Assembly: GCA_019322895.1 (NCBI GenBank)
Contig: JAHWHZ010000001.1
Location: forward strand, 266,220 to 330,219
From: Candidatus Woesearchaeota archaeon
GTDB lineage: Archaea; Nanobdellota; Nanobdellia; Woesearchaeales; ARS49
Length of the DNA stretch: 64,000 nucleotides
Direction: 5' to 3'
Shown: piece by piece, positions 3,217 through 53,343 of the stretch
Layout: every line of letters begins with the position of its first letter
Position numbering within the stretch: position 1 is the stretch's first letter
Made by a program: the position numbers and the translations under genes
Notes under the pieces: generated by a model
What the model was told of the DNA's origin: nothing
What the model saw: the letters and a program-made list of their open reading frames with translations, nothing else
The model's database searches: none

Positions 3217-4072
3217 ACTTTAAGCGATATAATCTTTTTCGAAAAAGCATCGCCTCTTTCTTATCTTTAAACGAATAGGATAATTTATTATTTTTTAAAA
3301 ATCGCAGGAGTTTATTGCAAAGAAATTTTTTAGTAAAACCTTTATTTACCGCGCCTTTATCTGAAATTTTAACGTTGGTAATGGGGCCCATAGCAGCAAT
3401 TTTTTGAACATCTTTAATTTTAGAAATTTCAATGCCTTGAAATATGCTCCAATTACGTTTATCCTGTTTTATTCTTGCGGATAAACCTAAGGATAAACAT
3501 AATCTTCTCATATCTGAAACTACAGACGGGTTTGTTTCAGCAATGCGAAATTCTGCTTCAAATTGTACTTGGTAGTATTGATACGTTTTATTTTTCTTTT
3601 TGTCTTTTTTTGACTTTAACTTAAATGTATAACAAAGACTGCCGCCAAAATCAAATAAAATCCTTAAAGCAAGTTGTTTTATAATAACTGATTCATCTAA
3701 TAAAAAAGACAAGGTAGGTTGCGGATTCTTGAGGTATTCGGATTTAGTCTGCAGTCCGGGGGTGGTTTTATAAGTGGGAGATAATGTCAATAACTCTTCT
3801 AGAGCATTTGCTGAATGCAATGTAGAAACAATAATTTTTTTATTGTCGCGCAAATAAACATAAAGCTTAGGTGTTTTATTAAATAAAGCCACACACAAAT
3901 ATTTAAACAGTAAATGCTGTTGTTTATTTCCAACTGTTAACAAGCGGATATATCTCTTTTTTGTATCCATGTATCCTTCAGCCAGAACAATAACTGCAAG
4001 TAATTTTAATTTCTGTACACGGCTCAACTTACTAAACTGTTTTAACATCATATTAAACAGCATACTGCTCAC
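3200..4072 (-). CDS. Free-standing LAGLIDADG-family homing endonuclease-like protein
   Basis: Two LAGLIDADG-like motifs: LLAVIVLAEGYMD and LALRILFDFGGSL. It lies between dphB and a tRNA gene and overlaps the dphB 3' end by 17 nt. Track start is GTG at 4072; the first ATG is at 4063. Confidence 0.55.
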   Translation of the reverse strand: MSSMLFNMMLKQFSKLSRVQKLKLLAVIVLAEGYMDTKKRYIRLLTVGNKQQHLLFKYLCVALFNKTPKLYVYLRDNKKIIVSTLHSANALEELLTLSPTYKTTPGLQTKSEYLKNPQPTLSFLLDESVIIKQLALRILFDFGGSLCYTFKLKSKKDKKKNKTYQYYQVQFEAEFRIAETNPSVVSDMRRLCLSLGLSARIKQDKRNWSIFQGIEISKIKDVQKIAAMGPITNVKISDKGAVNKGFTKKFLCNKLLRFLKNNKLSYSFKDKKEAMLFRKRLYRLKFNRTD

Positions 4073-17175: not shown

Positions 17176-17249
17176 ATGTTTCACCTGCCCATTGTTTTTG
17201 CAAATTACTATTTAAAGCTTTCTTTAAAGAAAATAAAAAAAGAAGAAAT

Positions 17250-18401
17250 TTATTCTTCTGTTACGTTTACATCCTCGTAAACTGCTTCTGGAGTTGGCTC
17301 TACTTCTTCTCCTGCTTCTGCTTCTTCTGAATCGGTCGCAGCTTCTTCTGTCTCTTCACCAGTTTCCTCAGCTTCCTCTACTGCAGGCTCTTCAGCTTCA
17401 TCTTCTGATGATGCTAGAGCTTCTGATCCGCCTTTTATTGCCTTGATAGCCCGCACAATCTCCTTAAGAGTTTTGTGTGTTTCTCTCAGTGCCTGATGTG
17501 CTTCTTTAGTTGCTTCAACTGCTTCCTGGATTTTGTTTTCCTGGTACAGTTGTCTTGCCTTGTCTCTTGCTTCTTTCGCTTTTTCTAGCTCTGCATCAAA
17601 GTCATCTAATAGCGGCGTGATTTGGGATGTGTCTTTTCCAGCATTATCCAGCCTCTCAACGATCTTATGAAGCTTTCTTTTAAGATTGCCAAGGCGAACG
17701 CTTATTGCATGGATTTTTCCGTTTGCAACGCGGCCAACACCTTTCTTGATTGTGTGCCTAAGCTCTTTCCAGGACTCCTTGATTATTTTAGCAGCTTCAA
17801 CATAGTCTTCTTTTGTGCTGTTTTCATCAAGACCCTCTATTGTTTCAAGAGCGCCTGCAATCTCTTCTGCTTTTTCATCAAGGTCTGATAAGAGTTCAGA
17901 TTTCTGTTCTTCATCCAGGTTTGAATTCTCAACTCTTTCCTTTGTCTTGGAAATCATAGCAAGAACATGCTCTGCAATATTTATCAGATATCTTTTTGTC
18001 TGTGTTCTTGTATCTTTTCTCAGTTCCTTACAATCTTCTGTCTCGCTGTCTTTGCATGCAGCAAGTCTTTCTTTTCTTTCTTGTATTTTTTGCCTTGCCT
18101 CTTGATGATTTGCCTTTACTTCAACTCTCTTTTCTTTGGCTTTAGCAAGACGCTCGCGCATTATTTCTTTGTTCTTCTTGTATTTCTCCCTTGCGACAGT
18201 GTATCGCTCTCTCAGATTCTTTGCTTTTTCTTTTACAGCATCTACTTTCATCTGCCTAGCTTCCTTGCTTTTGGCTTTATATAGTGTTGGTGTTGGAGTT
18301 GTTTCATTATCTCCTGTGTTGTCGAGTTCTACAGCAAATGCCGCAGGCACAAGACTTACTAAAAAAATGGCCATCATGAACAAACACATTATTTTTTTCA
18401 T
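17250..18401 (-). CDS. Secreted coiled-coil protein with acidic C-terminus
   Basis: Signal peptide, K/E/R-rich helical repeats, and a C-terminal EEAEE tail. SD GGGAGG lies upstream of the ATG. Confidence 0.45.
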   Translation of the reverse strand: MKKIMCLFMMAIFLVSLVPAAFAVELDNTGDNETTPTPTLYKAKSKEARQMKVDAVKEKAKNLRERYTVAREKYKKNKEIMRERLAKAKEKRVEVKANHQEARQKIQERKERLAACKDSETEDCKELRKDTRTQTKRYLINIAEHVLAMISKTKERVENSNLDEEQKSELLSDLDEKAEEIAGALETIEGLDENSTKEDYVEAAKIIKESWKELRHTIKKGVGRVANGKIHAISVRLGNLKRKLHKIVERLDNAGKDTSQITPLLDDFDAELEKAKEARDKARQLYQENKIQEAVEATKEAHQALRETHKTLKEIVRAIKAIKGGSEALASSEDEAEEPAVEEAEETGEETEEAATDSEEAEAGEEVEPTPEAVYEDVNVTEE

Positions 18402-18651
18402 TTTTGCCTCCCAAACACATCAGCCATCTAAAAAATAAAAAATTAGTGCGCAGGCAGCTCGCCTCTCGCACCAATAAAGATAGCCATTTTTTGTGTTTGT
18501 AAGGATTATATGGTGTATTTTCTTTATAAAGACTCTTTTTCAGGCCTTAAATTAAAGCTTTATTTGAGCGTTTAAAACTTTATGAAGGTCTAAACGGCCT
18601 TTTCTTACTTTACGCAAGGTTTTTAAAGTGCCAGCATCTATTCTTCGAAAT

Positions 18652-19350
18652 ATGAAGCTTAGAAGCATTATACTGCCTGTTTTGCTCATACTTGCAGCAA
18701 ACATGGTTTTTGCAGCAAACATACAAGGCAGTATATATGATATTGAGCTGAATGAGCTCAGTGATGTGATTGTTGAGATAGACACGACACCAAAACAGTC
18801 TTTTGTTGCAAAAGATGGCAGGTATTCTTTTGATGTTCCTTTAGGAGATTACATAATTCTTGCAAAAAATGGGCAGGGCATTGCTGAAGAAAAGATAACC
18901 ATAACAGATGACGGCACATATAATATTGATTTGATACTCTTTCCTGATTTCAGTGAAGAAGAAGAGATTCTTAATGACTCTGATTTAGAGATAGGTACAG
19001 ATTATACAGATGTAACTGAAAAGAATTATTCGCGTTATTACCTGCTTGCTTTTGTGCTTGTATTGATTATCATAATCGCAGTGATACTTCATTACAAGAA
19101 AAAACTAGAGACTGGACTGAAAAAAGAATTGAAGGAGATTAAAAAGACAACAAAAGAGGATCTTGAAGCAGACCTCAAGGAATTGATTTCTTTTATCAAG
19201 AAAGAAGGCGGAAGAACTACGCAGAAAGATATCCGCAGGAATTTCCCACAGTCAGAGGCAAAGATTTCCTTAATGATTGCAGAGCTTGAGCACAAAGGAA
19301 AGATAAAGAAGATAAAAAAAGGAAGAGGGAATATAATCATCCTTATTTAA
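18652..19350 (+). CDS. Single-pass membrane protein: extracellular beta-rich domain, TM helix, and a cytoplasmic winged-helix-like domain
   Basis: Signal peptide, then a carboxypeptidase-regulatory-like segment, a TM helix (LLAFVLVLIIIIAVIL), and a C-terminal RRNFPQSEAKISLMIAELEHKGKIKK. The first ATG (18652) lies about 25 nt after TATA ggtttttaaag, suggesting a leaderless transcript. Confidence 0.45.
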   Translation: MKLRSIILPVLLILAANMVFAANIQGSIYDIELNELSDVIVEIDTTPKQSFVAKDGRYSFDVPLGDYIILAKNGQGIAEEKITITDDGTYNIDLILFPDFSEEEEILNDSDLEIGTDYTDVTEKNYSRYYLLAFVLVLIIIIAVILHYKKKLETGLKKELKEIKKTTKEDLEADLKELISFIKKEGGRTTQKDIRRNFPQSEAKISLMIAELEHKGKIKKIKKGRGNIIILI

Positions 19351-19441
19351 GCATAGCACCTGGCGTGCAATGTAGGAAATAAGCGAAATAGAGCGGCTCG
19401 ATTAAACATGCGAGAAAATCTTAATGCAAAGCGTGCTATGC
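19351..19441. mobile_element. Family-1 91-bp element with perfect 9-bp terminal inverted repeats GCATAGCAC...GTGCTATGC (copy A)
   Basis: Begins at the first base after the TAA of the + gene. Its right terminal repeat contains the TAG stop of the convergent - gene. A second copy at 25547-25637 has 100% identical termini (18 nt and 16 nt) and about 65% internal identity. Confidence 0.6.
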
Positions 19442-19897
19442 TTCTTTAACGTATCGTTCTAATATTTCTGGTTTCCAGCGCTCTTTTTTGCCTGTTGTGA
19501 GGTTTTTAACACTGACTTGCTTGCTGATGTCTGTTATTTTCAATTGTTCGCCGTCAACTTCTATGATATCTCCTCTCTTGAAATTAAGGCATCTGAAAAG
19601 AACTGTTCCGCGGTATAGTAGCTTGCTTGTTACTTTGTGCTGTGTATGCAGTTTTTTGCTGGTCTTTAGTATGCCCACAAATCTTTTCTTCAGCTTGTTT
19701 CCCAGGTCCAGTATAAATTTGTTTGAGGACATCCAGAAATCTATTCCATTCCTCACTTTCTTCTCTTTTGCAACCCAGACATGCTTGTCCTGCCGTATCT
19801 TCTTCCTCACATAATTGATTACTTCGGGCGTTGGATTTCTGAGCTGAAGCTTGCCCTCAAAATACTTGGGCCCTTTTTCTTCTATTCTTGCGACCAT
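19436..19897 (-). CDS. Hypothetical protein (153 aa; possibly RNA-binding)
   Basis: ORF with no motif I can assign. Its stop codon and last codon lie inside the family-1 element. Confidence 0.45.
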   Translation of the reverse strand: MVARIEEKGPKYFEGKLQLRNPTPEVINYVRKKIRQDKHVWVAKEKKVRNGIDFWMSSNKFILDLGNKLKKRFVGILKTSKKLHTQHKVTSKLLYRGTVLFRCLNFKRGDIIEVDGEQLKITDISKQVSVKNLTTGKKERWKPEILERYVKEA

Positions 19898-19976
19898 GCA
19901 TTGATATTCATATTTAGTATATATAAAGTTTATCTAAAAAGAAACCTTTTTAAAGCACTCACATTCATAAAGCAAT

Positions 19977-20600
19977 ATGGAAATAAAGAAGTTCCTGAAG
20001 GCAGTCTGGCACTTTATTTGGGTAGAAGACAGCTGGCTTAGCTGGATTGTGAATGTGATTCTTGCTTTTATCATAATCAAGTTCTTGGTTTATCCTGGCC
20101 TTGGTTTTGCGCTGGGAACAAGCCATCCGATTGTTGCAGTTGTGTCAAACAGCATGGAGCATTCTGTTGGCTTTGATGACTGGTGGGACCAGCCCAGCTG
20201 CTGTGCTGATGGCGGCTGCAAAGAAAAGATAAGCCAGGGGCAGCTTTTGACAGAAAAAGGTATAAGCAAAACAGAGTTCAGTGATTTTTCTTTCACAAGC
20301 GGTTTCAATAAAGGGGACATCATGATATTGTACAGCCCTAAAAACCTGAAAATAGGGGATGTGCTGACTTTCAGTGTTCAGGGCCGCTCTGATCCAATCA
20401 TTCACAGGGTAATTGCTGTCAAAGAGCAAGGCGGAAAAAAATACTTTCAGACAAAAGGAGACAATAACTGCGGTTCAGCTGATTTTGAAAAAGCAGTTAC
20501 AGAAGATAGGTTTATAGGCAAGGCGGTCTGGAGAGTTCCTTTGCTTGGCTGGATAAAGATTGGATTTGTGTGGCTGTTGAAGCTTGTAGGTATAATGTAA
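19977..20600 (+). CDS. Signal peptidase I (archaeal Sec11/S26 type)
   Basis: N-terminal TM helix, catalytic-Ser region [11 protein letters not shown], and conserved [27 protein letters not shown] cctttttaaag lies about 25 nt upstream of the ATG. Confidence 0.8.
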
Positions 20601-20601
20601 A

Positions 20602-20916
20602 ATGTTGTTTTGCAAGAAATGCGGCGGCATAATGATGCCGAAAAAAGATAATGGCAAGACCTTTTTGGTTTGTCCTAAATGTGGATATAAGACTGGTGCA
20701 AAAGGGGCAGTGATTTCTGAGAAGTGCAAGTCAAAAGATGACTGTATTGAGGTTGTTGAAAAGATAGAGACAAGGCCTTTGGTTGATGAGGAATGCCCTA
20801 AATGCAAGCACAAGAAAGCAAGAAGCTGGGAAAAGCAGATGAGAGCAGCAGATGAGCCGCCTACAAGATTCTATGAATGCGAAAAATGCAAGCATATCTG
20901 GCGAGAGCAGTCATGA
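20602..20916 (+). CDS. tfs: Transcription factor S (TFS; RpoM/TFIIS-like)
   Basis: N-terminal Zn ribbon FCKKCGGIM...CPKCGY and C-terminal [36 protein letters not shown] match the TFIIS/RpoM Zn-ribbon signature. Confidence 0.85.
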
Positions 20917-21155
20917 ATATTGAAAAATATATCAAAAACAATTCTTTGAAGATTCTTGTCAAGCCAAACAGCAAGAAAAATGAGATCCTTGGCTATGATG
21001 AAAACAGGAAAGCTGTAAAAGTGGCAATTGCAGCTCAGGCAGAGAAAGGCAAAGCAAATTTAGAGGTAATCAAATTTTTTTCTAAATTATTAGGAAAGCA
21101 AGTCAGGATAAAAAGCGGTCTGGCAAGCAAGGAAAAGCTTTTGAAACTGCCGTAA
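20913..21155 (+). CDS. DUF167/YggU-family protein
   Basis: [56 protein letters not shown] matches YggU-like. Its ATG overlaps the TFS stop (ATGA). Confidence 0.6.
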
Positions 21156-21210
21156 TTCTTCCGGAAATTTCTGGCAAACACATATAAAGAATAAAATCAG
21201 TTATTCTGAT

Positions 21211-21444
21211 ATGTCTGAAGTTAATTTCATCGTGATTAAAGGAGAAAATCTTTATTTTGCAAAAGCGCATTACAGGAAAATCATTGAAGCAGTCAAGAAT
21301 CCTGAAAAATTCAAGAAATTGCTGAAAAGCAGGCATTATCTTGATGCAGGCTATCTTATTCTTGATTTCAATAACCAGACCATAATCAACTGCCAGACTG
21401 CTTCTGCCTTGCCAAAGCACAAGTTTGGGATTGTTTCAATTTAG
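21211..21444 (+). CDS. Hypothetical small protein (77 aa)
   Basis: ORF with an upstream TATA-like acatataaag. It competes with the antisense ORF 21103..21420, and neither has recognizable motifs. Confidence 0.35.
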   Translation: MSEVNFIVIKGENLYFAKAHYRKIIEAVKNPEKFKKLLKSRHYLDAGYLILDFNNQTIINCQTASALPKHKFGIVSI

Positions 21445-21446
21445 GT

Positions 21447-21537
21447 CAATGCCGCGCTACGTTTTGCTTTTAGAACCACTTGTTTATCAGATTCATCAGA
21501 TATCGCTTAGCCATTGAGGACTCCGCAGGCGGCATTG
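21447..21537. mobile_element. Family-2 91-bp element with perfect 9-bp terminal inverted repeats CAATGCCGC...GCGGCATTG (copy 1)
   Basis: Starts 2 nt after the preceding gene's stop. A second copy at 53251-53343 is in inverted orientation: copy 1's left 16 nt (CAATGCCGCGCTACGT) equals the reverse complement of copy 2's right 16 nt. Confidence 0.55.
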
Positions 21538-21596
21538 TTTAGAAAAACTTAAATAAAAGCTGTATTCTCATATTTTTGGGTGGTAATTTGGATAAG

Positions 21597-22223
21597 ATGG
21601 AGAAAGATGTTTTGGTTATTAGCAGAAAAATACTTTTTGATGCAGAAAAAGACAAGTTTCAGGGCTTTAAGGCTCATTCTGATATTGATTTCCACTCAAG
21701 GATTATCAAAGGATGCAAATACATGAAGAGAGGCATTGCTGAAGAAGACGAGACTCATAAGCAGCCTATTGGCTATGTCTTGATTGCCAATCCTAAGACA
21801 AAGAAAATATATGCCTACAAGCGCGCAAGCGCAGGCAAGGATTACACTGAAAAACGCCTGCAGAACAAATGGTCTGTCGGCATTGGCGGACACATAGACA
21901 GGACAGAAGAATCTGCTCAAGACCCTATCCACACAAGCATGCTGAGAGAGCTTTCTGAAGAAGTTAAAATAGGCCAATACTCACTAAAAGTCCTGGGATA
22001 TCTCAATGATGACAGTGATTCTGTCGGCAGGGTGCATTTTGGCATTGTTTATCTTGCCTTGACAGAATCAGATGTTTCCCCCGGCGATGCAGAATCTGTC
22101 TTTGGCGAGATGAAGACAATGGAAGAGATAAAACAGATAAGAAATTCTCCTGATGCTACTCTTGAAGGCTGGTCTGAGATTGCTATTGATTTTCTGGAGA
22201 AGAATTTGTCGGAGATAGTTTGA
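21597..22223 (+). CDS. Divergent Nudix-like hydrolase
   Basis: GIGGHIDRTEES...LRELSEEVKI resembles a Nudix box with a lengthened spacer. First ATG is at 21597. Confidence 0.4.
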   Translation: MEKDVLVISRKILFDAEKDKFQGFKAHSDIDFHSRIIKGCKYMKRGIAEEDETHKQPIGYVLIANPKTKKIYAYKRASAGKDYTEKRLQNKWSVGIGGHIDRTEESAQDPIHTSMLRELSEEVKIGQYSLKVLGYLNDDSDSVGRVHFGIVYLALTESDVSPGDAESVFGEMKTMEEIKQIRNSPDATLEGWSEIAIDFLEKNLSEIV

Positions 22224-22225
22224 TA

Positions 22226-22720
22226 TCATATACAGAATCGTTCACGAAGACATTCTTTTGCATCAGTATTTTCCATGCAATCAAAATATTCCTTTTGATA
22301 TATTTCCTGAGTAGGTGCATAATCTAAATTTTGAATTATTTGCAGGTATTCCTTATACAAACCGGTTGCATTTTCTTCTTGGTTTAATTCAAGGAACAAT
22401 AATGTTCTTGCTTGCAGATACTGAACTGGCCATGTATACGCAATGTATCCGGGTCTGTTAACTGCCAACTCACAAAGAATCAAAGCTTCTTCAAACTCAT
22501 CCGATGTACTGGCAGAACATGCTTTTTCTTGACATTGAGCTTGGTAGTTAATTGTTTTATGTTGAGTTTGTTCCAGTGCTTTTTCTGCTTCCTTGATAGT
22601 AGATTTAGGAACAGATTCTTCTGTAGTAGAATAAACTTTAGAGAACGGACTTGAAGTGCACCCTGCCACCAATAAAATAATGAATAGCAGTAAAACTGTT
22701 TTTGATGCCATGAAATTCAT
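22226..22720 (-). CDS. Secreted lipoprotein (Cys-containing)
   Basis: Signal peptide with lipobox LVAGCTSSP. 164 aa. Confidence 0.45.
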   Translation of the reverse strand: MNFMASKTVLLLFIILLVAGCTSSPFSKVYSTTEESVPKSTIKEAEKALEQTQHKTINYQAQCQEKACSASTSDEFEEALILCELAVNRPGYIAYTWPVQYLQARTLLFLELNQEENATGLYKEYLQIIQNLDYAPTQEIYQKEYFDCMENTDAKECLRERFCI

Positions 22721-22747
22721 TAATCCTGAATAGTTTATAAAACTTCA

Positions 22748-23497
22748 CTAAAAATTATCTAATCTGCTCTGCTTCTTGTTAAAATCTTCCAAATACTTTG
22801 GCGGCTTTACAGACACAAAAGTATATCCCCAGTCTGAAAGCATCTTGAATGCATTTGGAGTCATCTTTGGTGCTGCAATCATTCCCCTGACTTTTGTTAT
22901 TCCTTTGCTTACCATCAGTCTCTCAACATACCGCCTTAATTGAGTAACAGCACCCAAATCTGCGCAGTATCTTTTGCATTCAACAACAGTAAGCATTCCT
23001 TCTTTATCTATTCCAAGAACATCTATGAAGCCGTATTTTGTCTGCTCTTCTTGCGAGACTGGCTTGAATCCTTTTTCAATCATTTCAGGGTTTTCATAGA
23101 GCATGTTCGCCATATCTGCTTCTGTTCCAGATATGACTATTGATTTTCCATCCTCAAGCTTCTGCGAGTTAAAGAAGTGTATCCTGTTCATTGTTATGTC
23201 CATGTTTTCTTTCAATGCAAGATTTCTTGATTTCAGCATGAGTTTGCCTTCTTCTATTGCCATGCTATGGGTTGTGTTCGGCTTCATGTAGTTTACAGGA
23301 TTATTACCGGTTGGCTGGTGAACCAACAAAGCATTGTCTGCTTTTATTATCACTAATCTGTCGCCGTCTTTCAATAAACTCTCTGCTCTTCCAGAATATC
23401 TTATGCTGCAGTTGCAGCTGATTACAATCGTCTCGTTCCTTCTCAAGGCGTCATTCAATAATGTGACATAATCTTTTTGTTCTAGCATTTTATTCAC
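22748..23497 (-). CDS. nucS: Endonuclease NucS (EndoMS, mismatch-specific)
   Basis: N-terminal ssDNA-binding-like region and a C-terminal RecB-like nuclease core DVLGIDKEGMLTVVECKRY...QLRRY. Confidence 0.85.
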   Translation of the reverse strand: MNKMLEQKDYVTLLNDALRRNETIVISCNCSIRYSGRAESLLKDGDRLVIIKADNALLVHQPTGNNPVNYMKPNTTHSMAIEEGKLMLKSRNLALKENMDITMNRIHFFNSQKLEDGKSIVISGTEADMANMLYENPEMIEKGFKPVSQEEQTKYGFIDVLGIDKEGMLTVVECKRYCADLGAVTQLRRYVERLMVSKGITKVRGMIAAPKMTPNAFKMLSDWGYTFVSVKPPKYLEDFNKKQSRLDNF

Positions 23498-24047
23498 TTG
23501 GAAGATCTCTTTCAGATGTTATTTTATTGACATATTCTGTCACTATCTTTTTTGTAGGCGGCGATAATAGCAGTCTTCTTATTTTAAGTCCTGCTTTTTT
23601 TGCTTCTTCTATCCAGTGCTGGTCTCTTTGCTTGTTTATTGTTTCATAATCAAGCTCATACACCAGTTCTTTTATTCCTGCTGCAACAAGCAATTTAAGG
23701 CAAGTATAGCAGGGAAACAAGGTAACATACAAGGTTGAGCCGTGTATTCGTATTCCTTTGCGTGCTGCTCTTGCAATTGCATTGGCTTCTGCATGCACAT
23801 TCCTGGCATAATCGTTCTTCTCATGATCTGCCACATTCATGTGTCTTCTGAAGCACCTGCCCTCATCTGAGCAGTTTGGCATGCCTGGCATTGAGCCATT
23901 GTATCCTGTTGCCAGAACCTGCTTATCCATGACTATCACTGCTCCAGTTGGCCTTGACAAGCATGTTGACCTGGTGGCAGCCACTTTAGCAAGTATCATG
24001 AAGTACTCATCCCAGCTTGGTCTGTGCTTTGCACATGGAGTGTCCAT
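23490..24047 (-). CDS. dCMP/cytidine deaminase (zinc-dependent)
   Basis: HAEANAI and PCYTC zinc-binding motifs. Overlaps the nucS end by 8 nt, suggesting an operon. Confidence 0.8.
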   Translation of the reverse strand: MDTPCAKHRPSWDEYFMILAKVAATRSTCLSRPTGAVIVMDKQVLATGYNGSMPGMPNCSDEGRCFRRHMNVADHEKNDYARNVHAEANAIARAARKGIRIHGSTLYVTLFPCYTCLKLLVAAGIKELVYELDYETINKQRDQHWIEEAKKAGLKIRRLLLSPPTKKIVTEYVNKITSERDLPSE

Positions 24048-24154
24048 TTTATCCCCCTACTACTATGGAGTGCCTTTATTTATATTTATTTTCGTTCTGC
24101 AAAAGATATTACTGATAAAATAAAAGAATATAAAGGCCTGAATTCCTGAAAATC

Positions 24155-24793
24155 GTGATGAGAGGAATACTGATTAGTTTTGAGGCAGGAGAAGGTGCTG
24201 GCAAAGGCACTCAAGTCAGCTTATTAAAAGAATATTTAGAAAAAAAAGGTTTTAAAGTGCTTTTGACAAGAGAGCCAGGAGGACTGCCTCTTCCTGAAGC
24301 ATTAAGAAAAGAGGTTCAGCATCCAGACAAAGAGCACACTCCTGAAGGAGAGCTTTTATTGTTCTCTACTGCAAGATATCTGCATGCAAAAGACAAGATT
24401 AAGCCTGCTTTAGAAAAAGGAATGATTGTGATTACAGACCGTTTGCATGATTCTACAACTGTTTATCAGGGTTATGCTGGTGGAATAGATATTAATTTCA
24501 TTAAACAAGTTCATAAGGTAGCATTAGGAGATATAATGCCTGATTTGACCATATTCATTGATATTGATCCAGAACTGGGACTGAAGAAAATGACTACAAA
24601 TGAATTTGGAAAGCCTGACCGGATGGAAAGCAAAGGCCTTGAATTTCATAAGAAAGTTCGTGAAGGGTATTTAACACTCGCTAAACTAGAGCCAGATAGA
24701 ATAAAGGTAATCAAATACAGGGATGGTGATATTGAAGGCATGCAGAATGAGATAAGAGATTATGTTGATAAATTATTGGAAATCAAAGAATAG
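24155..24793 (+). CDS. tmk: Thymidylate kinase
   Basis: P-loop ISFEAGEGAGKGTQ and TREPGG motif. Confidence 0.85.
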   Translation: MMRGILISFEAGEGAGKGTQVSLLKEYLEKKGFKVLLTREPGGLPLPEALRKEVQHPDKEHTPEGELLLFSTARYLHAKDKIKPALEKGMIVITDRLHDSTTVYQGYAGGIDINFIKQVHKVALGDIMPDLTIFIDIDPELGLKKMTTNEFGKPDRMESKGLEFHKKVREGYLTLAKLEPDRIKVIKYRDGDIEGMQNEIRDYVDKLLEIKE

Positions 24794-24881
24794 TTTCGTC
24801 CATTTCTTCTTCAGCTTCATTCAGAAGCATAAAGTCTCCAAGCGGCCTGTTTTTCTTTGCTTCTTTATATCGTACTACCAT
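24783..24881 (-). CDS. Candidate 32-aa small ORF (MVVRYKEAKKNRPLGDFMLLNEAEEEMDETIL)
   Basis: Preceded on the minus strand by TATA tttatttaaatata, then SD GAGGTGA 7 nt before the ATG. I recognise no homology. Overlaps the tmk 3' end. Confidence 0.25.
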   Translation of the reverse strand: MVVRYKEAKKNRPLGDFMLLNEAEEEMDETIL

Positions 24882-25010
24882 TTTACTTCACCTCTTTTTA
24901 GAACACCCCTTTTGACACCTCTGTTTCTCCGCGCATTATTTTGTAAAACATAGCTTATATTTAAATAAATTGCAAATTAAAAATATAGTCCAAAGAATTG
25001 ATGTCACTAC

Positions 25011-25550
25011 TCAGCCAAAGTCAGCAAGTTTTTCCATAGAATGCTTGATTATTTTACCGTCGGCAGAATCTATTTTTATATTGACTGTTTTAAAGCTTTG
25101 AGTGACATATGTTATGTTAAATACTGTTGCTCCTTCAAGGTGCTGAATTATCAAGAAGTGCTTTAACAGTATCTCTTTAGGATAATTCTCCTTTATGCAG
25201 GCTTTTGCCTTTTCCAAGGCCTCGCTTACTGTTAATTTCACTTCTTCTGGTTTTAAAGGCATTATTTCCTGGCTTGCTTTCAGTATGTCCTGCGCAGGCA
25301 TTATCTCTATCTTGTTTCCTTGCTTGATGATTGTGTCTACTTTGTTGCTTTTCTTGTCATAGTATCCTATCTGCCACACATTATCTTCACTTGGCATCAC
25401 AAACACATGAGCAAGATAGAAATCTGGATGATCTTTTTTCCATTCCTTGAATTCAGGTGTTGCTTCAATCTCATCAATCAGTTTTTTGAATTCCATATAA
25501 TCAAAAAATAACCCAATCTTTTTAAACTTATCTTTAATCATCATATGCAT
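25011..25550 (-). CDS. Hypothetical protein
   Basis: ORF with no recognised motifs. Its likely ATG (25548-25550) lies inside the left terminal repeat of family-1 copy B. Confidence 0.45.
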   Translation of the reverse strand: MHMMIKDKFKKIGLFFDYMEFKKLIDEIEATPEFKEWKKDHPDFYLAHVFVMPSEDNVWQIGYYDKKSNKVDTIIKQGNKIEIMPAQDILKASQEIMPLKPEEVKLTVSEALEKAKACIKENYPKEILLKHFLIIQHLEGATVFNITYVTQSFKTVNIKIDSADGKIIKHSMEKLADFG

Positions 25551-25637
25551 AGCACCTGGCGTGCCTTTAAACAAATAAGAGAGATACATAGACTCGATTA
25601 TGCACGCGATAAAAACTTTAAGCAAAGCGTGCTATGC
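25547..25637. mobile_element. Family-1 91-bp terminal-inverted-repeat element (copy B), occupying a divergent promoter region
   Basis: Same termini as copy A. The start codons of both flanking divergent genes fall at or in the element ends (minus-gene ATG in the left terminal repeat; tyw1 ATG at 25638 immediately after the right terminal repeat). Confidence 0.6.
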
Positions 25638-26573
25638 ATGCAAATGTTTTCAGAACTTCGCAAAAAGGAGCTTGAAAAGCAGGGTTACAGGCTTGTTGGC
25701 AGGCATAGTGCTATAAAGATATGCAGCTGGTGCAAGAAATCAATAAGAGGGGAGGATGTCTGCTATAAGAATACATTCTATGGCATCAATTCATGGCGCT
25801 GCATCCAGATGTCTCCGTGGTTTGCCTGCACTCACAGATGCATTTTCTGCTGGCGGGATGTCCGGGAAAATCTTGTTCCTGAAGAGATTGACAGCCCGAA
25901 AGATATTGTTGATGGCTGCATTAAGGCTCAAAAAGAGATTTTGCAGGGCTTTGGAGGAAATGAAAAGCGCGACCAAAAGCATTTTGAAGAAGCTTTAGAG
26001 CCTCTGCATTTCGCAATCTCATTAACAGGAGAGCCCACACTATATCCAAAACTTCCAGAGCTTGTTGATGAGATAAAATCTAGAGGCATGACTTCTTTTA
26101 TTGTGACAAATGGGACTGTTCCTGAGATGCTGAAGAAATTAATCAATCATCAGCCCACGCAGTTGTATATGACTCTTCCTGCTCCGGATAAAGAGACTTA
26201 TCTTAAGACCTGCAATCCCTTAAACCAAGATTCTTGGAACAAGATTCAGGAATCTTTAAGCCTGATTAAGGAATTCAAGAGAAGCTGTTTAAGATTGACT
26301 TTAGTTAAAGGATATAATATGGTCAATCCAGAAGGTTATGCAGATTTGATTAAAAAAGCAAATCCTGCATTTATTGAGCTAAAGGCATATATGTGGGTTG
26401 GCCACTCAAGGGAAAGACTAGAGATTGAAAACATGCCTCTGCATCCAGAGATTGTTGAGTTTGCAAAGAAAGTGGCAAAAGCTGCTGATATGAAAATCAT
26501 TGATGAAAAGCCTGAAAGCAGAGTTGTATTATTGATGAAAGAAGACAGAAAAGACAGGATTATGGAGTTCTGA
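25638..26573 (+). CDS. taw1: tRNA 4-demethylwyosine synthase Tyw1/Taw1 (radical SAM)
   Basis: Radical-SAM cluster CTHRCIFCWR and a second Cys cluster upstream (CSWCKK). Start re-set to ATG 25638; the track ORF begins inside the element. Confidence 0.85.
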   Translation: MQMFSELRKKELEKQGYRLVGRHSAIKICSWCKKSIRGEDVCYKNTFYGINSWRCIQMSPWFACTHRCIFCWRDVRENLVPEEIDSPKDIVDGCIKAQKEILQGFGGNEKRDQKHFEEALEPLHFAISLTGEPTLYPKLPELVDEIKSRGMTSFIVTNGTVPEMLKKLINHQPTQLYMTLPAPDKETYLKTCNPLNQDSWNKIQESLSLIKEFKRSCLRLTLVKGYNMVNPEGYADLIKKANPAFIELKAYMWVGHSRERLEIENMPLHPEIVEFAKKVAKAADMKIIDEKPESRVVLLMKEDRKDRIMEF

Positions 26574-27864
26574 ATAATTTCTTGATGCCGCTTACAGTGT
26601 GCCCTATGCCTTGTATTGGGTGTATTGTAGCAAGCTCATGCAGTATATGGCCTATTTTCTGTTTTTTCTTTATTCTTGGCTCCTTGATTGAGAACATGAA
26701 TAAGGCAGAAGCTGCTCTCAGCAATGCAGAGATTATGAATATCAAAGGTATTCCCGAAAGTATGAAAACTGCCTTGTCTGCCACAAAGCCTCCTGCAATT
26801 GGCGCGATTATCAGAGGAATTGATGTGAGCATCACATATTTTGCAACTTTTACTGTCCTATGCTGATGCGAGAAGTCAAGCAACAGGTTGAATGTGCTTA
26901 TTTCCACACCTGCCCAGAATATGCCTGAGACAATCTGCGCGACAAAAATCAGCCAGATTGTCTGCGGCGTCACAAAAAAGAAAAGGATTGGCACAAGCGC
27001 AACTCCAAACATGCTCACTATTGCAACTGGCCTGTCTCCTATCTTGTCAGAAACTTTTCCAAAATGCGGGTGTGCCAGTATCTTGCAAAGGCCTGCGACT
27101 GCAAAAGAGATCATCATCAGCGTGTAGCTTATGTGGATATTTTTCAGCATGTATACTATGAAGAAAGGAGATGCAAACATGAAAGCAAAGTTAAAGAATA
27201 TTATGATGTATATGAATCTCCTGAACTGTCCTTTTATCTTGAAAAATTCTGTTATCTTGTGCTTTTTGTGGTCTGTATAAGGCAGCTCTTTCATCCTGCA
27301 GTAATAATAAGAAGACCAAAGGCCGAATAATATACCCACTAAAAACATGGTTGAAAAGCCGACATAGCTTGTCTTGGGAAAAAGGTCGAGGTACATTGCG
27401 CCGAATACACTTACAGTCAAGCTTGCAATTCCCATGAACATATTTCTTTTTCCAAAGTACTTTCCCCTGTGCTCAATTGGAACAATCTCTCCTGCAAAAG
27501 AGGTCCATGCAGGATTAGTGAGCCATTCTGTAAATTGCACAAGGAAAAAATAAATCAATAATGTCAGCAATGGGTGATTCATGAAAAAAACAGGAATCAG
27601 GATTATCGGAAGCCAGAGCAGGCGCGACGTAACAGTCAATACTACATTTATGTGCAGTCTTGAGTAAAGCTCAACAAGTTTTGCTCCAGGCACCTGCGCA
27701 AGAATCGCTGCAAGGTAAGGAAGCGCCCCTGCAATCCCGATAATTGTGTTTGATGCGCCCAAAGCAAGTGCAAAAGCTATCAAGAATGCGCTTGTAAGGC
27801 CGTAGTACAATGCCCACAGCACGCTTTGATATATCAATAATCTCTGGTTTTTTGTTATTCTCAT
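26560..27864 (-). CDS. MFS-family transporter
   Basis: 434 aa with about 12 predicted TM helices and MFS-like loop spacing. Confidence 0.7.
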   Translation of the reverse strand: MRITKNQRLLIYQSVLWALYYGLTSAFLIAFALALGASNTIIGIAGALPYLAAILAQVPGAKLVELYSRLHINVVLTVTSRLLWLPIILIPVFFMNHPLLTLLIYFFLVQFTEWLTNPAWTSFAGEIVPIEHRGKYFGKRNMFMGIASLTVSVFGAMYLDLFPKTSYVGFSTMFLVGILFGLWSSYYYCRMKELPYTDHKKHKITEFFKIKGQFRRFIYIIIFFNFAFMFASPFFIVYMLKNIHISYTLMMISFAVAGLCKILAHPHFGKVSDKIGDRPVAIVSMFGVALVPILFFFVTPQTIWLIFVAQIVSGIFWAGVEISTFNLLLDFSHQHRTVKVAKYVMLTSIPLIIAPIAGGFVADKAVFILSGIPLIFIISALLRAASALFMFSIKEPRIKKKQKIGHILHELATIHPIQGIGHTVSGIKKLFRTP

Positions 27865-28493
27865 ATTTTTATTATCTTGCCTAATGGCCCTGGATTAATC
27901 AGCAAAGCATTGTTCAGCTTGTCTTTTTTTCCTGCATTTTCATGAAGGTGCCCGCATATTTCAAGAACAATATTAGGATTTGACTTTATGAATTTTGTTA
28001 TTGTCTTGTTTCCGCAGTATTCTTTTCCTATTCTGTCAAGCTTTGTCTTGTAAGGAGGGGCATGCGTCACAAGAACTACTTTTTTTCCTTTTATTTTTGG
28101 CTTTATTTTCTTTATGAACTTTTCCATTTCCTTGTCCTGCCGCAAAAAGCTTTCTCCTGTAAAGCCTACAAAAACATAATCCCCTATTTTTATTGCTTTT
28201 TTGTTCAAAAAAATAAGGCTGTCATGAAAAGAGCATATTTTTCTCATCACAGAGTCTGTCTCGTGGTTTCCTGGTATAATTAGTACTTTCTTGCCAATCT
28301 TGCTTATTCTTTTCATCAGCTCTTCCAGGTGATTTTCAAACAAAGAGACATCACCTGCGCAAACGATTACATCTGGCTTTGTTTTTTTTGCTTTTTCTTT
28401 CAGTCTTTTGATGTATTTCAGGCTTTGATAGAAATCAACATATTCTGGTGATCTTGGTCTTGAGTGAAGGTCTACAAAAGCAAGAATTTTCAT
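27861..28493 (-). CDS. Calcineurin-like metallophosphoesterase
   Basis: MKILAFVDLHS, DVIVCAGDVS, IIPGNHE and GHLHE motifs. Start re-set to ATG (MKILAF). Confidence 0.75.
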   Translation of the reverse strand: MKILAFVDLHSRPRSPEYVDFYQSLKYIKRLKEKAKKTKPDVIVCAGDVSLFENHLEELMKRISKIGKKVLIIPGNHETDSVMRKICSFHDSLIFLNKKAIKIGDYVFVGFTGESFLRQDKEMEKFIKKIKPKIKGKKVVLVTHAPPYKTKLDRIGKEYCGNKTITKFIKSNPNIVLEICGHLHENAGKKDKLNNALLINPGPLGKIIKI

Positions 28494-28497
28494 GGAA

Positions 28498-29361
28498 TTA
28501 CACTCCAAAGCTCAACTGTATTATTGTCTGGTATGTCGTAAAGTTATTCAATACGTATGTCTCAACTATCATTGCAACAGCCAGCACAAGTACTGCGCAT
28601 ATCAAAATAAGCGTGTTTAATCCAAGTATCTTGGCAAACTGCGAGGAGAATAGTTTCTCCTTGACCACTGCATTTGACAGTATTGTTCCTGATATGACTG
28701 CAATCACATAGCTTGACATCTCAAGGAATGCATGCGGAAACACGCTCAACATTACAAGAATGAATAATATTGCTGTGCTGGCGCTCAGATTTATGGCTGT
28801 GGTTTTTGCAAGTGTGCCGAAAATTGTTCCCCATACAGATGCGTTCCATATTATCAGGTAGATTGAGCCGTTTCCTGCTATTAAAGCTACTATGAAGCAC
28901 AATGCAAGCACGCCCAGATTATGCGTGAACAAGTCCCAAAAAAGGCTCATTGAGAATGTTGTTGCTCCTCCTGACATCATTGCAGCAAGCTGCTGCTTGA
29001 ACAGCTGGTTTGCTGCCAGTCTTGGAAGAATCATTGAAAAGAATGCAAATACAAAGAATGCTCCAAAAAACATGTACATGTATACTTTGTATAGTTTCAG
29101 GTTTGATTTGAATATGTCTATTATATTATACAGCCTTGTAACTTCTCTATATGCTTTTGCTTCAAATACAGTAAACTGATACAAGGATGGTATGAGCAAA
29201 GTAGATGCAATTGCTACAATCACCAGCGCAGGATCATTTGGAAAGACCATCATTGCAAAGAACACGCCGAAAACAGTCAATGCAAAGCTGAGCACAAAAG
29301 CATATCTTGGATTTTCCTTCAAGAACTCAACTGGATATAGCTGCTCTAATACCATTTTCAC
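28498..29361 (-). CDS. Polytopic membrane protein (possibly SpoIIM/COG1300-like)
   Basis: 287 aa with about 6 TM helices. Family assignment is tentative. Confidence 0.4.
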   Translation of the reverse strand: MKMVLEQLYPVEFLKENPRYAFVLSFALTVFGVFFAMMVFPNDPALVIVAIASTLLIPSLYQFTVFEAKAYREVTRLYNIIDIFKSNLKLYKVYMYMFFGAFFVFAFFSMILPRLAANQLFKQQLAAMMSGGATTFSMSLFWDLFTHNLGVLALCFIVALIAGNGSIYLIIWNASVWGTIFGTLAKTTAINLSASTAILFILVMLSVFPHAFLEMSSYVIAVISGTILSNAVVKEKLFSSQFAKILGLNTLILICAVLVLAVAMIVETYVLNNFTTYQTIIQLSFGV

Positions 29362-33736: not shown

Positions 33737-34447
33737 ATGAAAAATAAAATTCTGGTCTCAACAGGCAATTTCTGGGATGGCAAGAATCCCTTGGACAATC
33801 TTAAAGCAATAAAAACAATAAGAAAACTTGATGTTGACGGTGTAGAGATTACTTTTTCAGACCCCAAGCTTCTAGAAGGATTTTTCAGCAATGAAGTGAA
33901 AAATCTGCTGCAGAAGTTCAAAATTATTGGTATGCATATGCCAGCAATAAAATACCAGAAAAATGACAAGACAAGGGAGATAATCAAGAAATGCTATTGT
34001 TTATACAGATTAATTAAGGCAGATTATGCAAATCTGCACATCAACTGGCTAAAAGATCCGGATCTTTTCAGGGGGACAAAATGGAATATTGTCATTGAGA
34101 ACGGCAGTTCAAAAAATGCCTTGTTTGTCAAAGACATGCAGAACCTTCTAAAGAAAAACAGGCGGTTTAAGATGATTCTGGATGTTAATCATGCTTATGA
34201 GAGCGATGAGATAGGAGAATATGTCAAAAAATTGAAAAACAAGATTTATGCAGTGCATCTTGGCGGCGGAGAAATAAAAGGACTTAATAGCCACCGGCCT
34301 TTTTTCAAGGCTCCGCAAGAATATAGGGATGCCTGCGAGCCTATTAAAAAGCTGGACTGCCCTATTGTTTTGGAGTATACTTTTCCTAACAAACTAAGCC
34401 AGATTGACAGCGAGATACAGCGCATCAAGAACTGGCTTAAAGCATAA
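33737..34447 (+). CDS. Xylose-isomerase-like TIM-barrel (sugar-phosphate isomerase/epimerase / AP endonuclease 2 fold) protein
   Basis: Weak family-level match over 236 aa. ATG immediately follows the topA stop. Confidence 0.45.
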   Translation: MKNKILVSTGNFWDGKNPLDNLKAIKTIRKLDVDGVEITFSDPKLLEGFFSNEVKNLLQKFKIIGMHMPAIKYQKNDKTREIIKKCYCLYRLIKADYANLHINWLKDPDLFRGTKWNIVIENGSSKNALFVKDMQNLLKKNRRFKMILDVNHAYESDEIGEYVKKLKNKIYAVHLGGGEIKGLNSHRPFFKAPQEYRDACEPIKKLDCPIVLEYTFPNKLSQIDSEIQRIKNWLKA

Positions 34448-34462
34448 ACAAAGCGTGCTATG
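34442..34462. repeat. Remnant of a family-1 element (gcataaacaaagcgtgctatg) flanked by direct repeats AAAGCATAAAC
   Basis: 14 of 16 nt match the family-1 right terminus. 11-12 bp direct repeats flank it on both sides (34439-34449 and 34464-34475). Confidence 0.35.
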
Positions 34463-34506
34463 TAAAAGCATAAACTATATATACTGTCCTCTATGTAAAT
34501 ATTCTG

Positions 34507-52148: not shown

Positions 52149-53228
52149 ATGATTTCAATTATCGGCGCAGGGCCTTCTGGATGCTTTCTTGCATATAAGC
52201 TTGCAAAAGCAGGTTTTGAAGTCAGTATTTTTGAAGAGCATGAAAAAGCAGGCCTGCCTGTGCAATGCACTGGCCTCGTAACTCCAAACCTGTTTAACCT
52301 AGTCCCATTAAAGAAATCATTTATTGTCAACAAGTTCAATTCAGTCAAGGTCATTGCACCAAACAATATTTCTGCTGAAATAAGAGTGCAGGAATACCTG
52401 CTTGACAGGAAAAAATTTGATAATTACTTTCTTGAAAAAGCACTGAATGCTGGCGCTAAAATCCATCTGAATCATAGGTTCTTGACAAAATCAGGGCAGC
52501 ATGCAGTCTTACAAAACAAGAATAAAATCAAGAAAATAAAGACAAAAATTCTTATAGGCGCAGACGGCCCATTAAGCCAGGTTGCAAAAACCGCAAATCT
52601 TTACGGCAAGCGGGAATTCTTTATCGGCATGCAGGCAACTGTGCAGGCAGACTTCAGCAAAAACACATACCAAACATTCTTTGGCAACATTGCGCCTGGC
52701 TTTTTTGCATGGATTGTTCCAGAATCCAGCACAAAAGCAAGAATAGGTCTGGCAACAAGAAAAAACACAAGGCATTATTTTGAGAATTTCCTGAAAAACA
52801 AAGGAAAAGTGATTGAAAAGCAGGCAGGCACCATCCCAATATATAATGGCAAAGCAGCTCAAAAAAAGAACACATATCTCATCGGCGACGCAGCAACTTT
52901 CTGCAAGGCAACTACTGGGGGAGGCCTTGTTCCTGGCCTGCAGTCTGCAAAAATACTGTCAGATTGTATAATCAACAAGAATAATTATGAATCTTCTTTA
53001 AAGAAATTAAGAAGACAGTTGTGGCTGCATACTTTGCTTAGATCCACACTAGACAGATTTAACACGCGGGATTACAATGAGTTAGTCAAGCAGATAAGTA
53101 ATCCAAGAATAAAGCAGCAGTTGTCAAGCAATAACAGGGATTCTCCAATAACACTCCTGCCAAAACTTTTGCTGGCAGAGCCGAAATTACTTTATTTTAG
53201 CAAGTGTCTGCTGCAAAAAAAGGTTTAA
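52149..53228 (+). CDS. Geranylgeranyl reductase-family FAD-dependent oxidoreductase
   Basis: FAD-binding IIGAGPSGCFLAYKLAKAG..FEE and VQCTGLV motifs. Confidence 0.7.
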   Translation: MISIIGAGPSGCFLAYKLAKAGFEVSIFEEHEKAGLPVQCTGLVTPNLFNLVPLKKSFIVNKFNSVKVIAPNNISAEIRVQEYLLDRKKFDNYFLEKALNAGAKIHLNHRFLTKSGQHAVLQNKNKIKKIKTKILIGADGPLSQVAKTANLYGKREFFIGMQATVQADFSKNTYQTFFGNIAPGFFAWIVPESSTKARIGLATRKNTRHYFENFLKNKGKVIEKQAGTIPIYNGKAAQKKNTYLIGDAATFCKATTGGGLVPGLQSAKILSDCIINKNNYESSLKKLRRQLWLHTLLRSTLDRFNTRDYNELVKQISNPRIKQQLSSNNRDSPITLLPKLLLAEPKLLYFSKCLLQKKV

Positions 53229-53250: not shown

Positions 53251-53343
53251 CAATGCCGCATGGCGAAGTTTTTGACTTCATATGCAATTACACATAAATC
53301 TGAGGCACAGGCAGTTTCATAACCAAGACGTAGCGCGGCATTG
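53251..53343. mobile_element. Family-2 93-bp terminal-inverted-repeat element (copy 2), inverted relative to copy 1
   Basis: CAATGCCGC...GCGGCATTG termini. Located between the GGR gene stop and the aglB promoter. Confidence 0.55.

Follow-up and report, generated by a model that had tools for sequence, protein, structure and literature searches.

A short DNA element with inverted ends is present in four full copies in a 64,000-nt stretch of the genome of a Candidatus Woesearchaeota archaeon (GCA_019322895.1, JAHWHZ010000001.1, positions 266,220-330,219 of the forward strand; hereafter 'the window', G+C content ~38%). We consider it likely that these copies are a non-autonomous, foldback-type mobile DNA element, resembling a miniature inverted-repeat transposable element (MITE), which is active now or has recently been active in Woesearchaeota. 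The element was assigned to the MITE class because it is small, contains no open reading frame (ORF), has inverted ends, is flanked by 5-bp duplications, has empty sites in relatives, and has been gained in a lineage-specific manner. As such, it is a new family of a known kind.

Copies in the window and in related genomes

An earlier note, made from the letters of the window, had described two copies, A (19351-19441) and B (25547-25637), both on the forward strand. Coordinates and strand proved exact, and the pattern GCATAGCAC-N60-85-GTGCTATGC matched the window twice, both times on the forward strand, compared with 0.00 matches expected in shuffled sequences. The first 18 and the last 16 nt of the two copies are identical, as the note had observed, and the identity of their interiors, put at about 65%, was measured as 68%. 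The count of two was too low, since a covariance model (R1) built from the copies first found added the copies at 21447 and 53251. The pattern misses these two because their terminal repeat differs (CAATGCCGC/GCGGCATTG). A second covariance model (R2) gave exactly four full copies in the window. The remnant with flanking 11-bp direct repeats that the note had reported was also recovered, as ACAAAGCGTGCTATGT with two mismatches to the 3' end of the element; the direct repeats, AAAGCATAAAC, bracket it at 34439-34449 and 34465-34475.

The note had proposed a search of related genomes, and this yielded copies in five other Woesearchaeota assemblies. Scanning one genome per species with the exact pattern gave one copy, in a Woesearchaeota metagenome-assembled genome (locus L001), and a metagenome scan gave six further loci with the element. 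Eight syntenic loci were retrieved through homologues of Taw1 (TYW1, 4-demethylwyosine synthase), the gene to the right of copy B. The host of the window belongs to Woesearchaeota (DPANN), and the nearest relatives of its Taw1 bear the NCBI names Candidatus Woesearchaeota or Nanoarchaeota. Among the loci compared, L122 is close to the window (87.8% identity in coding sequences over the 12 kb aligned, 17219-29354), and L123 and L128 are farther (~76%).

In total, 15 copies scored 45-104 bits with the covariance model, four in the window and 11 in relatives. R1 gave extra copies in L122 and L123, and R2 found two copies each in L128, L133, and L134 and no copy in L130, L132, L135, and L136 (79 kb together). 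The density was approximately one copy per 7-16 kb in the genomes that carry the family. Three scans of viral contigs gave chance k-mer matches only, so that loci L002-L121 and L137-L152 are irrelevant here; the covariance model found no copy in the loci of two of these scans.

Target duplications, empty sites, and independent insertions

Target-site duplications of 5 bp flank three insertions: copy A (TTTAA), the 21447 copy (CTAAA, or TTTAG on the forward strand), and copy a of L128/L123 (CGTAA). For its option of a mobile element (a MITE), the earlier note had named empty sites in relatives as the test, and such sites were found at three insertions. At 21440, the window and L122 read ...ATTTAG, followed by GT and the element (CAATGCCGC...GCGGCATTG) and then by TTTAG AAAAAC, and L123 reads ...CATTTAG AAAAAC. 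The insert of 93 bp is bordered by a clean duplication of 5 bp; the copy is present in L122 and not in L123 or L128. At 21153, L123 and L128 read CATAA, the element (GGTTTAGCGCC...GTGTTAAAC), and CGTAA, and the window reads ...GCCGTAATTC with a single CGTAA, which holds the TAA stop codon of ORF 20877-21155. The site of copy B is filled in the window; in L122 it is CAT-AAATAGT-ATG, with a spacer of 7 nt, and in L130 and L132-L136 it is free of the element. L123 and L128 carry a different member of the family there, 1-2 nt from the same point.

Each insertion was restricted to a single lineage, and the insertions fall on stop codons or on a transcription start. The 53251 copy, whose neighbours are a geranylgeranyl-reductase-like gene (stop at 53228) and an oligosaccharyltransferase STT3/AglB gene, was found in all three other assemblies of the same population.

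The sites that are occupied in more than one genome appear to have been hit independently, since copies from the same genome are closer to each other than copies at the same site. The interior identity of copies at different sites of one genome was 0.68 (A and B), 0.63 (the two L134 copies), and 0.72 (the two L133 copies). For copies at the same site of different genomes, it was 0.53 (B and L128 copy b) and 0.28 (A and the L134 copy at site A). Repeated hits at shared sites are expected when neutral targets are limited to a few very short spacers.

Anatomy of the element and conservation of its fold

The element is 91-94 bp long. There is no ORF common to the copies, which contain stop codons in most frames. 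In 15 of 15 copies the ends pair as a terminal inverted repeat of 9-15 bp. Inside this stem lies a bulge of 2-3 nt, on the left end only (CTG, ATG, CAA, CCA, CTA, or CT), followed by two G-C pairs and by a conserved, asymmetric subterminal motif, which is GCGWAGT on the left and ACGWAGC on the right. Drawn as a hairpin, this motif gives G.A, W-W, and A.G and then a G-C pair, and the middle pair varies between U-A, A-U, and G-U. The interior of ~55 nt is A/T-rich and variable, and its sole invariant part is a central (A)ATC, mostly AAATCTG.

The copies fall into stem subfamilies (GCATAGCAC, CAATGCCGC, GGTTTAGCGC, GTATAGCAC, and GCAATAGCAC), and the window genome houses two stem variants. Across the 15 copies, 95.6% of the stem cells were paired, with double-sided changes in six of the nine stem pairs. 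The terminal repeat thus shifts by compensatory changes while the subterminal motif stays fixed, which hints that a hairpin rather than a sequence is recognised.

The fold and its compensatory changes were among the checks proposed in the earlier note. The closing helix does covary; RNAalifold runs on 7 and on 15 copies revealed the closing helix only, without conserved interior structure, and the folding z-scores were modest. G-U and A-C mismatches are about equally frequent in the stem (roughly four events each in a hand tally from the alignments), so that neither strand is favoured as RNA. No Rfam family was found at the gathering score in the whole window, nor at a permissive E<=1-10 around all four copies. 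The orientation of the element relative to neighbouring genes is mixed, without bias. The note's other option, an RNA, thus found nothing beyond the closing helix in its favour, as there was no interior fold, no Rfam match, and no constant orientation.

We therefore regard it as improbable that the copies are a family of structured small RNA genes (e.g. protein-binding or guide RNAs) with a functional closing helix and internal loop, which has spread by duplication. The covariation of the closing helix, the conserved non-canonical motif (a GUA/GAA-like internal loop), and the central AAAUCUG would be in keeping with such genes. So would the identity of copy A and the 21447 copy to their L122 orthologues (98% and 92%, with third codon positions at 78%) and the TATA-like boxes that lie 17-28 nt upstream of several copies. 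However, these boxes are inconsistent, and there is no consistent terminator or common T-tract after the element. C/D, H/ACA, K-turn, or tRNA features were not seen in the copies, other intergenic DNA is as conserved, and the target duplications and empty sites require mobility anyway.

The degree of conservation was determined by comparison of the window with L122. Identity was 97.8% for copy A and 92.3% for the 21447 copy, compared with 93.5% for other intergenic DNA and 77.7% for third codon positions. Intergenic DNA is more conserved here than coding sequence, at 93.5% and 87.8%, respectively. Purifying selection on the elements was dropped as an argument, since other intergenic DNA is equally conserved and the elements are thus not specially constrained.

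Copy A and the end of the NMD3-like gene

The first base of copy A directly follows the TAA of ORF 18628-19350, as the earlier note had stated. The note was also right that the right terminal repeat provides the stop codon of the convergent gene, as the CTA at 19436-19438 is the stop of ORF 19436-19897. This gene encodes an NMD3-like protein, which ends in ...ERYVK* in element-free orthologues and in ...ERYVKEA* in the window and L122. The extension consists of GAA and GCA from the 3' end of the element and of the TAG from the repeat. The TTTAA duplication leaves both the TAA of the upstream gene and the codons for ..VK in place, and the new stop comes from the repeat. In L136 the stops of the convergent genes abut, suggesting that the ancestral genes may have overlapped at their stops.

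The wider proposal, that the terminus of the element supplies codons at gene boundaries, holds in one case, the stop of the NMD3-like gene at copy A, and is not a general rule because the CAATGCCGC and GGTTTAGCGC subfamilies are without TAG. Tolerance at gene ends comes mainly from the duplicated pentamer with its stop codon, and most of the stops lie in the targets and not in the ends of the repeat.

At the position of copy A, L128 has an unrelated 79-bp spacer (1757-1835) with the inverted repeats AACAAAGGC...GCCTTTGTT and AAGCAAACAA...TTGTTATTTGCTT. Several kinds of hairpin-forming inserts appear to accumulate at this convergent gene pair.

Copy B and the shared promoter of Taw1

In all relatives, AACCCAATCTTTTTAAAC..TAAT is shared between the two divergent genes, as the alignment of nine genomes at the Taw1 promoter showed. 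In element-free relatives, the Taw1 ATG is ~26 nt away from the centre of the TATA box. The same distance (~26 nt) separates this centre, in the window, from the ATG (25496) of the divergent gene of 161 aa. This spacing suggests that one bidirectional TATA box may drive leaderless mRNAs both ways. On the left side of copy B, the 50 bp at 25497-25546 are the conserved bidirectional promoter region and non-coding, and copy B separates the TATA box from Taw1.

The earlier note had placed the start codons of both divergent genes in or directly against the ends of copy B. In-frame ATGs do occur there, but the orthologues place the conserved starts elsewhere. The conserved start of Taw1 is that at 25644 (MFSELRKKELE), and 25496 (MEFKK) is most likely that of the minus-strand gene. 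A start at the in-frame CAT of the repeat is improbable since a reading of the L130 sequence by hand showed a TGA in frame just upstream of the ATG equivalent to 25496. A public gene call (P0001; 342 aa, window 25545-26573) is Taw1 with the whole element as a false N-terminal extension of 33 aa; its start ATG spans the junction between the left flank and copy B.

Inside copy B lies a TATA-like AACTTTAA, which we infer may act as a replacement promoter for Taw1; we word this with caution because the independent insertion in L128 is without such a box.

The position of copy B and of L128 copy b, between the promoter and a formerly leaderless start codon, could also be viewed in terms of an intron-like RNA insert that is cut by the archaeal splicing endonuclease at a motif resembling a bulge-helix-bulge, so that an insertion in a leader or a gene overlap would do no harm. 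At these two positions, removal of the hairpin would be of benefit, and the 3-nt bulge adjoins a long stem. DPANN splicing endonucleases reportedly accept relaxed motifs. However, the element has a single bulge, and in no copy does the opposite strand have another 3-nt bulge at a distance of 4 bp. If the element were excised at the bulge, the transcript would still contain the stem arms, and half of the copies run antisense to the genes beside them. We hold this origin to be highly improbable.

Features of the element copies, target duplications, and promoters in the window. Positions count from the first letter of the window; '.' indicates that no strand is assigned.
Feature	Position	Strand	Remarks
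Copy A	19351..19444	+	Core 19351-19441 (GCATAGCAC...GTGCTATGC) and 3 extra nt, TTC; 80 bits
Copy of the CAATGCCGC subfamily	21445..21537	-	Core 21447-21537; 2 extra 3' nt, 21445-21446; 99 bits
Copy B	25547..25640	+	Core 25547-25637 and 3 extra nt, ATG; between the conserved TATA box and the Taw1 start codon
Copy of the CAATGCCGC subfamily, bulge ATG	53251..53343	+	94 bits; no clear target duplication
Fragment of the element 3' end, ACAAAGCGTGCTATGT	34448..34463	+	14/16 match; at the stop codon of ORF 33737-34447
Left TTTAA duplication of copy A	19346..19350	.	Includes the TAA stop of ORF 18628-19350
Right TTTAA duplication of copy A	19445..19449	.	On the minus strand, codes for the conserved ..VK of the NMD3-like protein
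First TTTAG duplication of the 21447 copy	21440..21444	.	Includes the TAG stop of ORF 21211-21444
Second TTTAG duplication of the 21447 copy	21538..21542	.	Single TTTAG at the L123 empty site
Possible left duplication of copy B, CATAT	25542..25546	.	Partner CAAAT at 25641-25645, 4/5 match; uncertain
Bidirectional TATA box, CTTTTTAAAC	25518..25527	.	Near-palindromic, conserved in the 9-genome alignment
TATA-like AACTTTAA inside copy B	25614..25621	+	26.5 nt upstream of the Taw1 ATG at 25644

How the element may move

On insertion, 5 bp of an A/T-rich target are duplicated (TTTAA, CTAAA, or CGTAA), and in these compact genomes the insertions have survived only at gene boundaries. The left duplicate of copy A retains the upstream TAA, and the NMD3-like gene runs two codons into the element before it reaches a TAG. 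Copy B landed on the transcription start of the leaderless Taw1 gene. If the copies are MITE-like DNA, the element would be moved in trans by an enzyme encoded elsewhere, the simplest candidate being a DDE-type transposase that makes a 5-bp staggered cut. Such an enzyme would recognise the subterminal motif within the paired stem; a paired-stem context is proposed because the stem varies between subfamilies only by compensatory changes.

To our search for this enzyme, the Pfam scan of ~55 ORFs in the window returned no transposase or integrase, and no transposase was found in the ~260 kb examined (the window and ~200 kb of relatives). A longer autonomous element with matching ends was not found in the window, where stem-like 9-mers paired over 12 kb gave chance pairs only. 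In the loci of the relatives, the covariance model found only short copies of 91-114 bp.

Several observations weigh against a MITE-like element moved by such a transposase. No autonomous partner or transposase was seen in the window or in the loci of the relatives. The extreme tips vary by subfamily (GCATAG, CAATGC, GGTTTA), and the tip bases of DDE transposons are normally constant. At the 3' end, 0-3 extra nt separate the stem arm from the duplication, a poor fit to a clean cut, and the 53251, L001, L124, and L134 copies have no recognisable target duplication. A protein that binds each duplex end separately would not alone keep the ends complementary, unless there is one enzyme per stem variant. 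Finally, the copies (92-98%) are no less conserved than intergenic DNA (93.5%), so that some constraint is possible.

Some of these points would be accommodated by a mobile hairpin with structure-dependent recognition, moving through a folded intermediate of single-stranded DNA or RNA in which the stem, the bulge, and the G.A/W-W/A.G loop are read instead of a terminal duplex sequence. This would be a new mechanism of mobility, as opposed to that of a classical, transposase-derived MITE, and we think it unlikely to apply. The stem differs at six of nine positions between subfamilies and is nevertheless paired in 95.6% of the cells, two stem variants occur in one genome, and the position of the bulge is constant while its sequence varies. 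G15.A80 and A17.G78 are retained in copies outside the A/B subfamily, with U-A, A-U, or G-U as the intervening pair. The ragged 3' ends, with their 0-3 extra nt, and the ~260 kb without a transposase would also be in line with it. A 5-bp target duplication is, however, the classical mark of a staggered cut of duplex DNA, and known hairpin-dependent systems (IS200/IS605, attC) give no such duplication. The near equality of G-U and A-C mismatches in the stem leaves no RNA strand signal, and related transposases with their own cognate ends would mimic compensatory changes. A form of this scheme that still makes 5-bp duplications, with an enzyme that mobilises or maintains the element through the folded hairpin by reading the bulge and the G.A/W-W/A.G loop regardless of the stem, seems to us just as doubtful; within it, the element might be processed out of host transcripts.

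Taking the copies again as MITE-like DNA, their interest lies partly in the host. DPANN genomes are very small and tightly packed, with genes that often overlap or share promoters, and mobile DNA still spreads there. The landing places are stop codons and transcription starts, where the genes on both sides remain intact owing to a 5-bp duplication or to a stop in the repeat. In practice, the family can serve as a marker of recent divergence between Woesearchaeota populations, and it causes wrong gene calls, one of which is the public 342-aa Taw1. It also provides a natural experiment on how a promoter is disrupted at a leaderless gene. If the compensatory changes at the ends mean that a hairpin is recognised, the family would point to an unknown mobilisation enzyme.

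Composite structures and other observations at the compared loci

At two loci that are unrelated to each other, L126 (4819-4950) and L134 (13783-13915), a full copy is followed by 1-9 nt, then by an exact repeat of the first 23-27 nt of that copy, and then by divergent sequence. Such partial duplicates may have remained from tandem or abutted-end intermediates, or else from gap repair that was not completed. Both copies of L133 (13859-14028 and 3985-4150) lie inside a repeat of ~165 bp with its own inverted ends, GGTTAAGTTAC...GTAACTTAAC, and with 9-bp direct duplications, CTGCCTATC and TCTAAAAAG. This outer unit, unmatched in the window, represents a second MITE family by which the small element has been carried along. 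Taken with the window fragment at 34448, the duplicates in L126 and L134 and the nesting in L133 suggest that the intermediates may have been nested or had abutted ends.

The near-identical contigs L124 and L125 differ by a 10-nt indel, CATACTGCTC, located exactly at the 3' boundary of the element (L124 880-892), and the outermost stem pair is A.C in one and A-T in the other. In L122, an insertion of 122 nt (3922-4043, window ~21148) was found just before the stop of the orthologue of ORF 20877-21155. Its sequence is unrelated to the element, and it has an inverted repeat of its own, CAAACTTTTTCAAAGTTTG.

Two further observations concern the aligned region outside the elements. The 226-bp spacer 18402-18627 contains a G+C-rich hairpin, GTGCGCAGGCAGCTCGCCTCTCGCAC, nearly unchanged in L122, and it may hold an unannotated RNA. 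The thymidylate kinase gene (24155-24793) is 74% identical to that of L122, with third positions at 52%, compared with ~90% and 78% for its neighbours, and it shows normal identity to the more distant L128. This suggests that the gene may have been replaced by recombination in one lineage.

Known element classes that do not fit

The aligned copies were also compared with the defining features of other classes. A bulge-helix-bulge intron was rejected, as two opposite 3-nt bulges with a 4-bp helix are absent and the opposite strand has a bulge of <=1 nt. C/D-box, H/ACA, and K-turn RNAs were rejected because G-C and C-G pairs, and not G.A/A.G, follow the bulge, no ACA follows the stem, and there is no Rfam match. 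As to tRNAs and tRNA-like structures, ARAGORN found none in the window, and no T-arm precedes the 3' strand. Elements derived from IS200/IS605 (PATE/REP) have a subterminal hairpin at each end, no terminal inverted repeat, and no target duplication; the present element has one long-range stem formed from both ends, plus 5-bp duplications. An integron attC site was rejected since there are no R/L boxes (GTTRRRY) and the copies are dispersed among housekeeping genes in both orientations. Finally, neither a T-loop, a permuted tRNA, a retron a1/a2 with branching G, nor the layout of origin-recognition box and unwinding element fits the aligned copies.

Comparison with known systems

Integron attC sites are recognised as hairpin structures with extrahelical bases and a variable centre, their pairing being conserved and not their sequence. 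The Woesearchaeota element is alike in that pairing rather than sequence is conserved, in its extrahelical bases, and in its variable central part. It differs in lacking GTTRRRY/RYYYAAC boxes, a cassette array, and a nearby integrase, and attC recombination gives no 5-bp duplication.

The Correia elements (NEMIS) of Neisseria are short, non-autonomous, inverted-ended, and dispersed between genes, often directly upstream of them, and they can bear outward-facing promoter boxes and form a hairpin when co-transcribed with a neighbouring gene (PMC10969869). All of these features have a counterpart here, as the Woesearchaeota element is short, non-autonomous, and intergenic, has inverted ends, often lies upstream of genes, may contain promoter boxes, and can be drawn as a hairpin. 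Correia elements differ in being bacterial and longer, with 26-bp repeats of fixed sequence, a TA duplication, and a site for integration host factor; the present element has a 5-bp duplication and a repeat that varies by compensatory changes. Correia hairpins are cleaved by RNase III, an enzyme that archaea are generally not known to have.

Archaeal MITEs are known from Sulfolobus (SM1-SM4), Halobacterium, and Haloquadratum (PMC10969869). The present family shares with them its non-autonomy, terminal inverted repeats, target-site duplications, and insertions in single lineages. The Sulfolobus, Halobacterium, and Haloquadratum families match known insertion sequences through shared ends, whereas no partner was found for the Woesearchaeota element, which also differs in host clade and in sequence.

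A census made with MITE-Tracker predicted ~105 MITEs per Mb in one Woesearchaeal genome (PMC11602168). The host group is the same, and the density is of the same order as the one copy per 7-16 kb found here. The census gives counts only, without anatomy, targets, or behaviour at gene boundaries, so that its comparison with the element is by density and not by sequence (PMC11602168). Our literature search on MITEs together with DPANN archaea gave no paper on both among the top 20 matches.

Rickettsia palindromic elements (RPEs) and ERIC are small palindromic repeats of bacteria, and RPEs insert in frame within coding sequences. ERIC occurs at the 3' ends of genes (PMC10969869). Like the element described here, these small palindromes are tolerated at gene ends or inside them, where they alter protein termini or transcript ends. 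The Woesearchaeota element differs in that two codons of one protein are changed and in that its insertions lie on stop and start boundaries.

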